Shown here: in pieces, positions 44,955 to 51,634 of the stretch
How the letters are laid out: every line of letters starts with the position of its first letter
Numbering within the stretch: the stretch's first letter is position 1
The notes under the pieces: generated by a model
The model's input: only the letters and a program-made list of their open reading frames with translations
The model's database searches: none
Told to the model about the DNA's origin: nothing
Virus record (IMG/VR): IMGVR_UViG_2778261631_000002
DNA length: 64,000 bases
Strand: one strand, 5' to 3'
DNA from: a virus
Lineage: Duplodnaviria > Heunggongvirae > Uroviricota > Caudoviricetes
Made by a program: the position numbers and the translations under genes

Positions 44955-45110
44955 TTACCTTTCAGATTCGTAGGCTGTGAAGACAGTGACCTCCGTCTGG
45001 CCGGTTCGGATTCGTACCTCGCAGAGGTCTTTCCTCGTTACCAGTGCCGTCACAATGACGGTTAAACAGATGACGATCAGAGCGATTAACATCGCTTTTT
45101 GCTGCTTCAT
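44955..45110 (-). CDS. hok: Hok/Gef-family type I toxin
   Basis: 51-aa ORF MKQQKAMLIALIVICLTVIVTALVTRKDLCEVRIRTGQTEVTVFTAYESER with AAGGAG SD; hallmark Hok sequence. Confidence 0.8.
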   Translation of the reverse strand: MKQQKAMLIALIVICLTVIVTALVTRKDLCEVRIRTGQTEVTVFTAYESER

Positions 45111-45168
45111 AGCCTGCTTCTCCTTGACCTTTTGGTCGGTAAGAGGCTAATCTACGTATGCTAAGCAT
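44962..45168 (-). CDS. mok: Mok-like overlapping reading frame
   Basis: 68-aa ORF covering hok in another frame and starting upstream of it, as in hok/mok/sok loci. Confidence 0.4.
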   Translation of the reverse strand: MLSIRRLASYRPKGQGEAGYEAAKSDVNRSDRHLFNRHCDGTGNEERPLRGTNPNRPDGGHCLHSLRI

Positions 45169-45291
45169 AGATATGGCCTCAGATTAATGTTAAGCGTCTT
45201 GCAGGACGCGTAATGTTATCTGGGGCTTTCTTCTATCTGCTTTTCGGGTCATGCCTGAAGCAGATAGCCTCAAGCACCCGCAACGATTGTA

Positions 45292-47332: not shown

Positions 47333-47349
47333 AAATTTATTAGAGCAAA
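47333..47349 (-). promoter_or_regulatory. C1 operator-like 17-mer (16/17) upstream of kilA-repL
   Basis: Plus strand AAATTTATTAGAGCAAA, about 70 nt upstream of the kilA start. Confidence 0.6.
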
Positions 47350-47426: not shown

Positions 47427-48470
47427 TTAACCTATTGCTACTGGTTTTAACAAACCAGCATCAAGTAGCTTGCGAGTTAACCACTGCTGGCCTTTACCCG
47501 TTAATTGGGGCGTCAGCCGTATCTGGTAGCCATTTTCATCATCCAGCACCACTTCTTTCACCGTGAAATACCCGGCGTTAATGTACTGCTGGCGCGGTAC
47601 GTTTTTGCGCGCACCAAAAGCCATGAGAATGCCGTTCTGGCGCAACCATGAGAAAAGGGCGTTTTGCTTAAGTCCAACGACCTTTGCAAAGTTCCCGATC
47701 AGGATTCCATTAGCCGCTGATACCCGGTCGGCAAAATCGACTTTAGGGGCTGCGGCCACCAGCTGTTGTTCCAACTGCATTTTCTGTTCTGCCAACTCGG
47801 CAGCCAGGCGTAGAGCGTCTGGTAATGTTTGGGGGATCGATGGGGCAGGGGAGTTTGCCTGCTGCAATTCTTCCAGTTTGTCGATCAGCGAACGGCGGAC
47901 TGCTTTTGACTCGCGCGCGGCGACTCGCAGGGCTTGTTTGTAGGTCATGGTTATGACAACCATAGGCGTACCGCCACCTGGCGGCACGGTTGCACTTTTT
48001 GTGTAACCGTCCTCACCTTCTAATTCGTCGAGTATTTTTTTGATGAATTTGTTGTTCCGAACCTCTGGTTCCCCACATAACTTACGCGCTTCATTGACCA
48101 TCTTTAACAGCGTCTGGCTGTCGATTGTGTCTCCAGTGTTGGAGATAACATTCACAGCTGGTGATGGCGTAGCTGAAGCAAAAGATGCTGGTTTTTTAAC
48201 ATTCAAATTATTACTGGTCATTCTATGTGCCTCCTTTCTCATTTCTGCTGCCACCGTTGCGTAACGTAGACGTCCTTGTTCAATCAAATAATCCCTGATC
48301 TCGGCTATCAGTAGCCTGTTGATCACAGCCTTATCTGTTCGGGTATAAAAACGTCTGGTTATCATGAAATAGTTGGCAATTGCGCCGGGGATCTCCCGTG
48401 TCGGCATACAGGCAGTATGCAGGGCGATCGCTTCGGCTATGTCATTACGGGTGACGAGAGGTTTTTTCAT
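47427..48470 (-). CDS. ant: Antirepressor Ant
   Basis: 347-aa ORF downstream of icd and the c4 RNA; shares its C-terminal domain with KilA. Confidence 0.6.
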   Translation of the reverse strand: MKKPLVTRNDIAEAIALHTACMPTREIPGAIANYFMITRRFYTRTDKAVINRLLIAEIRDYLIEQGRLRYATVAAEMRKEAHRMTSNNLNVKKPASFASATPSPAVNVISNTGDTIDSQTLLKMVNEARKLCGEPEVRNNKFIKKILDELEGEDGYTKSATVPPGGGTPMVVITMTYKQALRVAARESKAVRRSLIDKLEELQQANSPAPSIPQTLPDALRLAAELAEQKMQLEQQLVAAAPKVDFADRVSAANGILIGNFAKVVGLKQNALFSWLRQNGILMAFGARKNVPRQQYINAGYFTVKEVVLDDENGYQIRLTPQLTGKGQQWLTRKLLDAGLLKPVAIG

Positions 48471-48688
48471 AAAACCCCCTGAACGTCGGAAGAGAAGGGG
48501 AGGTTCCAGTAACTAAGTGAATTGCGCGAGTTAGTTGAAAAACGGGCAGTAAAAATGCAGGGGCCATCAGGCAATTGAGAGCGTGCTTCGTCTTCTGTTG
48601 CTGCGATGACGAAGTGATAGTGGTGTTTTTTGCAGGAATAGAAACGCCAGATGAATTCTTGGCGTGCGCAAGGATTGGCATTAACCAT
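48467..48688 (-). CDS. icd: Icd-like small protein (interference with cell division)
   Basis: 73-aa ORF overlapping the ant start, between the c4 RNA and ant. Confidence 0.5.
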   Translation of the reverse strand: MVNANPCARQEFIWRFYSCKKHHYHFVIAATEDEARSQLPDGPCIFTARFSTNSRNSLSYWNLPFSSDVQGVL

Positions 48689-48738
48689 AGTTACGGCCTC
48701 ACAATCAGGTTTAACAACCTGCTACCCGCTGCTAAACA

Positions 48739-48815
48739 GGTGGCAGGACGTGACGGGGTTAGCAGACTGGCGATTGTGAAACCAGCAGGCCGAAGCCTCC
48801 CCATCACGCCCCACC
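48739..48815 (-). ncRNA. c4: c4-like antisense repressor RNA (77 nt)
   Basis: Minus-strand GGTGGGGCG...CCTGCCACC with paired termini; contains CTGCTAA complementary to two GTTTAGCAG target motifs in the same transcript. Confidence 0.5.
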
Positions 48816-48935
48816 ATAATTTGGGCGTAACGCGGTTTTACGGACACAAAAATACCGCAATATCGGATATCTGCGGCTGTCCGCACAATCATTCAGGCTG
48901 CTAAACCCGGTCGCAGAATTTGCTACGACGGCGAA

Positions 48936-48964
48936 ACTATAAGCCTGAACGATTAAAAGGTCAA
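48936..48964 (-). promoter_or_regulatory. Sigma70 promoter of the c4-icd-ant operon
   Basis: Minus strand TTGACC - 17 nt - TATAGT. Confidence 0.6.
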
Positions 48965-49002
48965 TATGATGCAAAAAGATAGCATTCGCGACTTAAAAAT
49001 AC

Positions 49003-49019
49003 AAATTTATTAGAGCAGA
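49003..49019 (-). promoter_or_regulatory. C1 operator-like 17-mer (15/17) upstream of the immI operon
   Basis: Plus strand AAATTTATTAGAGCAGA. Confidence 0.5.
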
Positions 49020-49300
49020 TTAGCGTCGTGCAATAGATATATTATTTGTGATGAAAAATAATGCAGAGGGATATTGTAACTTTAAGATGGATATCAATAG
49101 TCGATACATAAATTAAGTTAGCAATAAACTATTAACTTAAGAAATAATGCAGATGGTGAACTTGTCTCTGACTTTTCAGCTATACACAATAAGTTAGGGA
49201 TAGCTTATAAAAAGTTGATTAATTGATATAAGTCAATGGGAGTATTCTTGTTTACTTTCCGTTCTCGTGGTAACTTCTCGCCGGTTTTTGTTTTTCTGGG

Positions 49301-51022: not shown

Positions 51023-51634
51023 ATGGGGCTTAATGTTGCTTCAGTAAAGTCTTATGTATCTTCAGCATTAACGACGACATTATTTGGCTCCGGCGTTGGT
51101 GAACGGGAAGTTGGTAAGCTGACGTCAATCATCATGAACAAAATGCTGTTCGCGCAAGGATGGCAGTTCTCTGTCGAAGTTGATGGACTGGAGGGGGCAG
51201 ACTTCTTTGCCAAAGATATTACCTACCACGATTACAGCATCGAATATGAAACGATTAAAATCGGCGGAGGGAATATCCTTCAGCCAACGGAGCGTTCGCC
51301 TGGGCAGATAACCATGATGGTCAGGGATACCGTTGATGGCCTCGTTTTGGACTGGTTTAAGACGGCAAAAAGTCGGGTGATCAATCCGGACGGTACCGGG
51401 AATATACCGTCTAAATATTTGCTCAATGTGCGTATTTATCGGTTGCTGTCCTCCGGTTTAACCAAACTGGAAAATGAGATGACGGTATTCCCGGTCACTA
51501 CCGGCGATGTCACCTATGCGCGGGATCAGGTTACGGAATTTAAGTCATTCCCAATGACCTTCGCATTGCACAGCACGTTTAACCAATCCTCAAGTTCTTT
51601 GGCTTCCCTTCTGGGCTTTAGTTTTTCTCTTTGA
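51023..51634 (+). CDS. Putative tail tube protein
   Basis: 203-aa ORF upstream of the tape-measure-like sit gene. Confidence 0.45.
   Translation: MGLNVASVKSYVSSALTTTLFGSGVGEREVGKLTSIIMNKMLFAQGWQFSVEVDGLEGADFFAKDITYHDYSIEYETIKIGGGNILQPTERSPGQITMMVRDTVDGLVLDWFKTAKSRVINPDGTGNIPSKYLLNVRIYRLLSSGLTKLENEMTVFPVTTGDVTYARDQVTEFKSFPMTFALHSTFNQSSSSLASLLGFSFSL

Follow-up and report, generated by a model that had tools for sequence, protein, structure and literature searches.

A c4 antisense RNA control region of P7 type upstream of icd and ant in a P1/P7-like phage-plasmid sequence

The closest described systems are the immI regions of the phages P1 and P7. c4 is annotated in the P1 record (AF234172) at 48343..48419, together with the sites a1, b1, a2 and b2, and in that of P7 (GenBank AF503408) as a misc_RNA at 51057..51133. 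The P1/P7 mechanism is summarised in passages of PMC5320573, PMC8198154 and PMC12197685, which cite Citron & Schuster 1990, Hartmann et al. 1995 and Riedel et al. 1993; the passage in PMC5320573 states, after Hartmann et al. 1995, that the c4 RNA of both phages is released from a precursor, with RNase P generating the 5′ end and the 3′ end being processed as well. The established way in which c4 acts in P1/P7 is to block translation at the icd ribosome-binding site, whereas the CI RNA of P4 and the CB RNA of N15 are described as acting by premature transcription termination (PMC4825925). Those two are also small RNAs processed from the transcript that carries their targets, and complementary sites lie on either side of each RNA (PMC4825925 and the sequence records). 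A further related arrangement is the isrK-orf45-anrP region of Gifsy-1 (Rfam RF01394), with lambdoid relatives such as mEp460. There the leader forms a pair of hairpins at its 5′ end and then a terminator hairpin, and downstream of it come an RNA of the C4 family, a small open reading frame (ORF) and a translationally coupled antirepressor gene. The C4 match was verified in mEp460, and we infer that STnc1160 of Gifsy-1 is a C4 homologue. Only for Gifsy-1 have a short released leader RNA and activation by it in trans been shown (PMC4825925).

The window analysed here is a stretch of 64,000 nucleotides, and all features given below lie on its minus strand. Positions 49019..48467 hold a complete immI control region, made up of a C1 operator, two promoters, a1/b1, c4 and a2/b2, followed by icd and ant1/ant2. 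It is very probably a P7-specific immI immunity operon, belonging to a P1/P7-like phage-plasmid, and nothing in the sequence speaks against this reading. The anatomy, the fold of c4, its complementarity to the targets, the identity to P7 and the covariation were observed directly. A first-pass annotation had proposed immI-type control by a c4 antisense RNA upstream of icd-ant, in an arrangement like that of P1 immI. The proposal was borne out by matches to the Rfam C4 and c4-a1b1 families, by a 1101-bp alignment, 98.8% identical, with the curated immI of P7, whose annotation includes c4, icd, ant1, ant2 and Op(c4), and by perfect covariation of c4 with its targets among relatives; the gene order, the ATGA overlap, the targets and the operator were all present. 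The control region is real and intact and has already been described. It holds no new biology, as it is a re-identification of the textbook antisense-RNA immunity switch. That switch is credited to Citron & Schuster 1990.

The C1 operator, Op(c4) or Op51 (TCTGCTCTAATAAATTT, 49003..49019), is identical to the annotated monovalent operator of P7 and differs from the C1 consensus word ATTGCTCTAATAAATTT by two mismatches; the window has 11 such sites where 0.39 would be expected. P2c4 (formerly P51a) was positioned at 48976..49005 from the annotated promoter of P1, with which it aligns; its −35 hexamer is at 49005..48999 and its −10 hexamer, TATCTT, at 48981..48976. P1c4 (formerly P51b), a TTGACC-N17-TATAGT promoter at 48936..48964, matches the consensus at 10/12 positions in a scan and lines up with the sigma-70 promoter of that name in the P1 annotation. 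The hexamers of both promoters are the same in the window, P1 and P7. According to the alignment with the P1 annotation, it is the −35 of P2c4, the upstream promoter, that the operator overlaps, whereas P1c4, which begins 39 nt further downstream, is free of operator overlap. C1 is predicted to bind there and to govern the operon promoter, judging from the identity of the 17-mer to Op(c4) of P7 and its overlap with the P2c4 −35. Both the TTGACC-N17-TATAGT promoter (48964..48936) and the C1-operator-like site (49019..49003) had been picked out at first pass. Two substitutions relative to P7 lie close to the promoters, at 48934 (2 nt after the P1c4 −10) and 48973 (3 nt after the P2c4 −10), and either could alter promoter strength.

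The c4 antisense RNA, 77 nt at 48739..48815, was assigned with P7 specificity from Rfam RF01695, from 100% identity to P7 c4 and from its fold. The RF01695 match (48821..48736) scored 69.6 bits against a gathering threshold of 45 (E = 1.7e-11), spanned model positions 1-87 in full and contained no non-canonical pair. When aligned with the curated 77-nt c4 misc_RNA of both P1 and P7, the segment 48815..48739 had the same edges, as first proposed; it was identical to P7 at 77/77 nt and differed from P1 at five bases, which are the changes matching those in the targets plus a C-to-T change in the stem. The minimum free energy was −44.9 kcal/mol (z = −5.73), and none of 200 shuffled sequences folded equally well. 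The termini pair, as anticipated, in a long terminal stem that encloses two internal hairpins, giving the C4 shape with the two recognition segments unpaired: b′ (CACAAUC, c4 nt 38-44, 48778..48772) in a 9-nt hairpin loop and a′ (CUGCUAA, c4 nt 51-57, 48765..48759) as a single-stranded 7-nt junction. The RNA begins with 5′ GGU, and beyond the stem its 3′ ACC is unpaired; both features are consistent with processing from a precursor.

Target sites for both segments were located by alignment to the annotated P1 sites. Upstream of c4 are a1 (TTAGCAG, 48898..48904), which is complementary to and covaries with a′, and b1 (GATTGTGC, 48883..48890), which is complementary to b′ and covaries with it across four sequence types. 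Downstream, in the icd-ant mRNA, a2 (TTAGCAG, 48729..48735) covaries with a′, and b2 (GATTGTGA, 48706..48699), which covaries with b′, occupies 48697..48706 together with the icd Shine-Dalgarno sequence GAGG (48700..48697). GAGG thus lies within or abuts b2, 9 nt before the icd ATG, and the target overlaps the ribosome-binding site as in immI. Sequence and folds placed a spacer hairpin, CAGGUU-GUUA-AACCUG (48706..48721), between a2 and b2; it is not kept in SJ46 or D6. CTGCTAA in c4 (48765..48759) had been described as complementary to two copies of a longer motif, one upstream and one just before icd. Both copies of GTTTAGCAG exist, at 48906..48898 and 48737..48729, but only 7/9 bases of each pair with c4, these being TTAGCAG, the exact complement of CTGCTAA. 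The downstream copy does lie upstream of icd, but its a2 site is 41 nt from the ATG, and it is b2, not a2, whose sequence overlaps the ribosome-binding site. The second pairing, of b′ with b1 and b2 (GAUUGUG, an exact 7-nt complement), had been missed; recognition of targets by c4 is bipartite, through a′ and b′ and not through a′ alone.

TTAGCAG by itself occurs 11 times in the window against 7.3 expected, which is not beyond chance. The 7-mer was therefore replaced as a test of significance by the composite TTAGCAG-N(5-25)-GATTGTG, which has three occurrences in 64 kb against 0.00 expected, so that the significance of the pairing comes from the composite pattern, the covariance-model scores and covariation. 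Short-duplex energies, computed for the unpaired segments a′ and b′ only, were −15.1 and −18.5 kcal/mol for the cognate targets and −6.5 and −13.5 kcal/mol for the C4 of the window on P1 targets. In full-length cofolding the two RNAs stayed folded (ddG about 0), and duplexfold opened C4 completely; these algorithms are limited in that neither recovered the pairing between loop and target.

The genes downstream follow the P1/P7 order, icd and then ant1/ant2, and the icd stop overlaps the ant1 start (ATGA). icd (48467..48688, ATG at 48688) was taken from the ORF list and encodes a cell-division inhibitor of 73 amino acids; 71/73 residues (97%) are identical to P7 Icd, the changes being A67S and G72V, and in an identical plasmid PGAP names the product 'Icd-like'; NZ_CP074369 is one identical plasmid. 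ant1 (47427..48470), identified from the ORF list and the P7 and P1 annotation, encodes an antirepressor of 347 amino acids, with ant2 as an in-frame internal start at 48221. Ant1 is one residue shorter than its P7 counterpart and 89.7% identical to it, against 92.2% identity to P1 Ant1. The one site reported by a terminator scan, weak and unrelated, lies where icd meets ant1 (48492..48475).

Processing of c4, the translational block, icd-ant coupling and heteroimmunity are carried over to this locus from the published P1/P7 work by sequence identity. Transcription of the minus strand would start from the operator-overlapping P2c4/P51a and from P1c4/P51b downstream of the operator, and would yield a single transcript with the a1/b1 leader, c4, a2/b2, icd and ant1/ant2 in that order. 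The 77-nt c4 RNA would be excised from this precursor and would pair further downstream on the same transcript, a′ with a2 (UUAGCAG) and b′ with b2 (GAUUGUG). Because b2 overlaps the icd Shine-Dalgarno sequence, pairing there would block translation of icd. As expression of ant would require icd translation, to which ant1 is coupled through ATGA, no antirepressor would be made, and repression by C1 would persist, maintaining lysogeny and immunity. The a and b words would determine the specificity of this immunity. Since the words of the window are those of P7, the element should repress a superinfecting immI of P7 type and not one of P1 type.

The comparison with P7 supports this assignment. 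c4, a1, b1, a2, b2, Op(c4) and the hexamers of both promoters are identical in the window and P7, and the gene order and ATGA overlap are the same. Over 601 bp (49040..48440), seven point differences separate the two, none of them in c4, a target or another functional word. The upstream neighbours are also shared, the upf50.5 and upf50.0 lipoprotein genes, whereas P1 has sim genes at that place. P1 has the same architecture, promoters, C4 fold and Icd and Ant genes and is 95.5% identical in nucleotides over the shared 818 bp, but its a word is TTGACAG instead of TTAGCAG and its b word GTTAGTG instead of GATTGTG, so that two bases differ in each of a1, b1, a2 and b2. The first-pass annotation had named these sequences as the determinants of a specificity that differs between P1 and P7; the window carries the P7 words and differs from P1 at every specificity position. 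On these identities the predicted immunity specificity is of P7 type, and because the words differ, P1 and the element in the window should be heteroimmune at immI. Covariation was followed in eight phages, comprising two a-types and four b-types. The a′/b′ segments paired with a2/b2 in 112/112 cells and with a1/b1 in 112/112 cells, against 24-55% in slid controls. Of the 14 pairs, eight had changed, each time on both sides, while no pair had a one-sided change, and every change in a′/b′ was matched in both target copies among the eight relatives. Six combinations of a and b words occurred among nine elements.

Two other readings of this stretch were weighed against the P7-type antisense RNA. 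That the module might instead be that of P1, or bear a new specificity, draws on the incomplete identity to P7 (98.8% over the 1101 bp), on an Ant1 slightly nearer to that of P1, and on hybrid specificities such as that of JL22, which has the a word of P1 and the b word of P7. We consider it very improbable, given that a1, b1, b′, a′, a2 and b2 each equal P7 and are each two bases off P1, and that 0/7 of the differences from P7 fall within c4 or a target. The probability of the other reading, a small c4 repressor protein encoded where we place the RNA, is negligible. ORFs do overlap c4 (48892..48722, 56 aa; 48807..48691, 38 aa; 48974..48804, 56 aa), and a CDS is given at this place in early records and in some recent ones: record X15639 lists 'c4: CDS', and a hypothetical protein is annotated over c4 in the JL22 record and an 'Icd' extended across it in that of 813R1. 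Such a protein would leave unexplained why the relatives differ in sequence solely within the a/b words, with the changes echoed at three separate places in such a way that Watson-Crick pairing is kept. Together with this mirrored covariation, the covariance-model score of 69.6 bits with every pair canonical, the fold (z of −5.7) and the misc_RNA at c4 in the curated P1 and P7 records effectively refute c4 as a protein-coding gene.

In the leader upstream of c4, the c4-a1b1 motif (48890..48942; Rfam RF03163, 54.6 bits against a gathering threshold of 46.7) marks the upstream duplicate target pair and forms two hairpins in the leader MFE fold, the second of which holds a1 in its loop or on its 3′ side. 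Between b1 and c4 lies a terminator-like hairpin, GCCGCAGAUAU-CCG-AUAUUGCGGU followed by AUUUUUG (48847..48877), which has its counterpart in the terminator hairpin modelled for isrK in Rfam and is a putative terminator; its energy is −8.9 kcal/mol (z = −1.9). A competing hairpin, UGCGG-ACAG-CCGCA (48885..48872), overlaps the 3′ end of b1. The simple terminator scan did not report the terminator-like hairpin, whose loop and bulge lie outside the limits of the scan. The isrK match itself (RF01394, 48929..48848) scored 43.7 bits, below the gathering threshold of 50. Elsewhere isrK scored 35.1 in P1 and 46.5 in D6, both under the threshold, and 67 in mEp460, which passes. The leader has an architecture homologous to isrK and is not a curated member of the family. 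As in the window, the isrK leaders of Gifsy-1 and mEp460 bear a1/b1-type words complementary to the C4 loops, but their specificity words are unrelated to those found here. A match to mir-1231 (20.6 bits) was noise.

Two roles for this leader, either of which would act besides or upon repression at a2/b2, were considered. C4 bound to nascent b1 might remove the competing hairpin and let the terminator-like hairpin form before c4, giving negative feedback on the whole operon of the kind described for P4 CI RNA and N15 CB RNA. a1/b1 covary with a′/b′ as strictly as a2/b2 do, so their pairing is under selection, and a hairpin with a U-tract does stand between b1 and c4. In the modelled nascent leader the pair probability of the terminator rose from 0.17 in the free state to 0.96 once b1 was masked, and the same behaviour was modelled in seven of eight relatives (P7, JL22, SJ46, 813R1, 673R5, D6 and the divergent mEp460 isrK element, 0.22 to 0.96); P1 was without the modelled switch (0.92 to 0.99). 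The N15 and phiKO2 records have an annotated Rho-independent terminator at the homologous place, while termination at a1/b1 is modelled here, and the IsrK paper raises the same attenuation idea for Gifsy-1 (PMC4825925). The argument is nevertheless thermodynamic modelling throughout, with energy gaps of about 2 kcal/mol; masking any arm of the competing hairpin yields a switch by construction, and the terminator-like hairpin is weak and unannotated in the P1 and P7 records. We regard such attenuation as rather doubtful. It is unlikely that a leader terminated before c4 serves as an IsrK-like small RNA that titrates C4 and thereby turns on icd/ant translation. The likeness to isrK points that way, as does mEp460, whose bona fide isrK match lies 24 nt upstream of a C4 match of 83.6 bits and bears a1-/b1-type words that are complementary to its C4 and recur beside a downstream Shine-Dalgarno sequence and ATG. 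In Gifsy-1, a short IsrK ending at its terminator activates orf45 and the coupled antirepressor anrP in trans, and a processed RNA of about 80 nt complementary to IsrK is also made (PMC4825925). Against this stand the isrK scores under gathering in the window, D6 and P1, the lack of a documented short leader RNA for P1/P7 in the accessible literature, and the account of the Gifsy-1 authors, who explain activation by a cis structural switch and not by C4 titration (PMC4825925).

Tentatively, the a1/b1 leader of P1/P7 type may be the same element as lambdoid IsrK and a regulator in its own right, a leaky terminator switched by C4, whose terminated leader could possibly act as a C4 decoy. If this were true, the 'putative' a1/b1 sites would gain a function, and the literatures on P1/P7 C4, Gifsy-1 IsrK/STnc1160, P4 CI and N15 CB would be unified. 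If confirmed, this lead on IsrK, attenuation and decoy would matter more than the re-identification of immI.

The practical value of the P7-type module is in annotation and immunity typing. The same module occurred in about one-third of the matching PLSDB plasmids. In the gene tables of the P1-like plasmid records examined, no annotated feature lay under the c4/target match, but PLSDB tables omit RNA genes; some phage records carry a spurious CDS over c4. The a/b words offer a simple sequence-based immunity type, which predicts which P1-like phage-plasmids, many of them carriers of resistance genes, can superinfect or co-reside.

The window belongs to a P1/P7-like phage-plasmid. Over 1101 bp around immI it is 98.8% identical to phage P7 and, over the shared part only, 95.5% identical to P1, and the same 1101 bp are found with 100% identity in several Escherichia coli IncY plasmids (e.g., NZ_CP074369). 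Searched in full against Rfam with gathering cut-offs, the window gave the C4 antisense RNA (RF01695) at 48821..48736, minus strand (69.6 bits; threshold 45), and the c4-a1b1 motif (RF03163) at 48942..48890, same strand (54.6 bits; threshold 46.7). The first-pass annotation had read the region as immI-type control by c4. The Rfam matches, the identity to P7 and the covariation described below support that reading: this is the previously described immI antisense control by c4, here with the specificity of P7.

We placed its elements, all on the minus strand, by alignment to curated P7 (AF503408) and P1 (AF234172) and transfer of their annotations, and the sequences at the coordinates were checked directly. 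The C1 operator of the c4 operon, Op(c4) (TCTGCTCTAATAAATTT, 49019..49003), overlaps the -35 of promoter P2c4/P51a (-35 at 49005..48999, -10 at 48981..48976), and promoter P1c4/P51b follows at 48964..48936 (TTGACC-N17-TATAGT, 10/12); this operator and the second promoter had both been recognized beforehand. Then come the upstream targets a1 (TTAGCAG, 48904..48898) and b1 (GATTGTGC, 48890..48883), the 77-nt c4 (48815..48739) and the downstream targets a2 (TTAGCAG, 48735..48729) and b2 (GATTGTGA, 48706..48699), the last overlapping the icd Shine-Dalgarno (SD) sequence GAGG. The cell-division inhibitor gene icd (48688..48467, 73 aa) overlaps the antirepressor gene ant1 (48470..47427) by ATGA, and ant2 has an internal, in-frame start at 48221. 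By this alignment, the positions originally assigned to c4 and the region limits (48467-49019) were exact. A partial extra P7-type a word, TAGCAG, lies at 48724..48719, 4 nt 3′ of a2 and partly within the spacer hairpin; P1 has it too, and there the off-target duplex of a P7-type a′ with the mRNA amounts to -8.5 kcal/mol.

Seven positions between 49040 and 48440 (49024, 48989, 48973, 48934, 48632, 48490 and 48474) separate the window from P7, none within the operator, promoter hexamers, a1, b1, c4, a2 or b2. P1, in contrast, departs at 2 bases in every target word (a1, b1, a2, b2) and at 5 in c4, in line with the initial remark that immunity specificity, set by the c4/target sequences, is not the same in P1 and P7. 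Because the specificity words are those of P7 and P1's differ, the immI of the window is, judged by its sequence, of the P7 type. Duplex energies, computed on the unpaired segments only, were -15.1 (a1b1) and -18.5 kcal/mol (a2b2) for the cognate targets versus -6.5 and -13.5 kcal/mol for the window C4 on P1 targets. At 48934 and 48973, just 3′ of the P1c4 and P2c4 -10 hexamers, respectively, the minus strand has T where P7 and P1 have C; either substitution could affect promoter strength or the start site. RCS47 and phi456 match the window 100% over 48970..48690 and hence share the 48934 substitution. Ant1 (47427..48470, minus) is mosaic relative to the control region, with 89.7% identity to P7 Ant1 and 92.2% to P1 Ant1, whereas c4 and its targets are purely P7 type.

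The paired termini first proposed for the 77-nt RNA were recovered as a 17-bp terminal stem, which the predicted fold combines with two hairpins (-44.9 kcal/mol versus a shuffle mean of -27.7; z = -5.73; none of 200 shuffles as stable). Recognition segment b′ (CACAAUC, nt 38-44) occupies the loop of the second hairpin, and a′ (CUGCUAA, nt 51-57) is an unpaired junction. The 7-mer TTAGCAG by itself is not enriched in the window (11 copies versus 7.3 expected); the composite TTAGCAG-N(5-25)-GATTGTG occurs exactly three times versus 0.00 expected, as a1-b1, as a2-b2 and as b′-a′, the last within c4 on the opposite strand. This count and the fold confirm the earlier observation that a′ is complementary to two target motifs. 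Recognition is bipartite, however, and its other half, the b′/b1/b2 pair, had been missed.

As relayed by PMC5320573 and PMC12197685 (Citron & Schuster 1990, Hartmann et al. 1995), P1/P7 c4 is cotranscribed with its target and matures to 77 ± 1 nt, RNase P generating the 5′ end; a′ and b′ then base-pair with the mRNA surrounding the ribosome-binding site. When icd translation is blocked, the coupled ant genes are unexpressed; Ant otherwise inactivates the repressor C1 (PMC8198154, PMC8201110). Given the identity to P7, this mechanism should transfer to the window: c4 would be cut from its own precursor transcript and bind a2/b2 at the icd ribosome-binding site, stopping icd translation so that ant is unexpressed and C1 is not inactivated, and heteroimmunity would be expected likewise. 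Biere, Citron and Schuster reportedly found in 1992 that the untranslated icd region permits premature transcription termination.

The C1 operator 17-mer, with at most 3 mismatches, occurs 11 times in the window versus 0.39 expected, including 28247..28263, 12410..12426, 31769..31785 and 47333..47349. Two of the sites overlap in inverted orientation (28236..28263), and an Op(rep) equivalent lies ahead of kilA at 47349..47333; the C1 regulon appears intact. A sok antitoxin RNA (RF01794, 113.9 bits) lies at 45105..45279, minus strand, downstream of kilA-repL; at this place the record of the identical plasmid NZ_CP074369 has a hokD toxin gene. This hok/sok-type addiction module adjoins the lytic replicon. 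Three minus-strand tRNA genes (25715..25787, 27431..27503 and 27509..27581; Rfam tRNA, 66-75 bits) were also found, as expected in P1-like genomes.

Of 575 PLSDB plasmids that match the 117-nt module from c4 to b2 (48815..48699), 189 have it at 99% identity or more, chiefly in Escherichia and also in some Salmonella and Klebsiella. The gene tables of the matching plasmid records, which in PLSDB omit RNA genes, list no feature under c4. The JL22 record has a "hypothetical protein" over c4 and that of 813R1 an over-long "Icd," and records of the lambdoid phage mEp460 and of Stx phages run an over-long Rha/antirepressor coding sequence across isrK and C4. The c4 annotation gap is systematic.

We aligned the control regions of eight phages (the window, P7, P1, JL22, SJ46, 813R1, 673R5 and D6). 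Two a types (TTAGCAG and TTGACAG) and four b types (GATTGTG, GTTAGTG, ACTTACG and ACGAATG) occur in six combinations, the a word and the b word each acting as a module of its own. In all eight phages the c4 word complements both target copies exactly, with 112/112 cells paired for a′/a2 with b′/b2 and 112/112 for a1/a′ with b1/b′. Both partners had changed in 8 of the 14 pairs, no pair had changed on a single side, and 24-55% of cells paired when the partner was slid by 1-3 columns as a control. This constitutes strong evidence for selection on the a/b pairings, and shows that selection on a1/b1 is no less strict than on a2/b2, the functionally characterised pair.

The leader (48929..48848, minus) matched Rfam isrK, a small RNA of Salmonella prophage Gifsy-1, at 43.7 bits under permissive thresholds, below the gathering value of 50. 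The terminator hairpin of the model aligns to GCCGCAGAUAU-CCG-AUAUUGCGGU followed by AUUUUUG (48877..48847, minus), 5′ of c4. In mEp460 (1437-1700 of the examined sequence), an isrK match above threshold (67 bits) precedes a C4 match (83.6 bits) by 24 nt. The isrK element contains GTGGAAA and TCACCAAAG, which are perfectly complementary to a′ and b′ of the C4 that follows it; each of the two words appears again further downstream, adjoining SD and ATG. This complementarity to the adjacent C4 would make IsrK-family RNAs the a1/b1 leaders of C4 operons. In Gifsy-1, short IsrK stops at its own terminator, and read-through yields an inactive isrK-orf45-anrP mRNA and the ~80-nt processed STnc1160, complementary to IsrK; in trans, IsrK turns on orf45 and the coupled antirepressor (Hershko-Shalev et al., PMC4825925). 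That paper leaves the C4 work uncited, and our literature search found no paper connecting IsrK with C4/a1b1.

Two mutually exclusive hairpins compete in the leader, UGCGG-ACAG-CCGCA (48885..48872, minus) and the terminator-like one (48877..48854, minus). The former, which draws on both b1 (its 3′ end) and the terminator (its 5′ arm), is favoured in the free nascent leader. In thermodynamic modelling, where energy gaps were small, terminator pair probability rose from 0.17 to 0.96 when b1 was masked as by C4 pairing, and from 0.00-0.46 to 0.92-0.99 in P7, JL22, SJ46, 813R1, 673R5, D6 and mEp460. The P1 leader showed no such switch (0.92 to 0.99), which was thus modelled in 8/9 elements. The terminator-like hairpin has little stability (-8.9 kcal/mol, z = -1.9); a Rho-independent terminator is annotated at the homologous place in the records of N15 and phiKO2. 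The effect of b1 masking suggests that a1/b1 could act as an attenuator or decoy. Within the literature searched, only the IsrK/a1b1 equivalence and the possible attenuator go beyond what is known, and we regard the two jointly as a tentative, rather doubtful proposal.

JL22 combines the a word of P1 with the b word of P7, and D6 that of P1 with the b word of SJ46. These combinations imply that the a and b recognition modules have recombined, and that immI immunity comes in more types than the two classical ones of P1 and P7.
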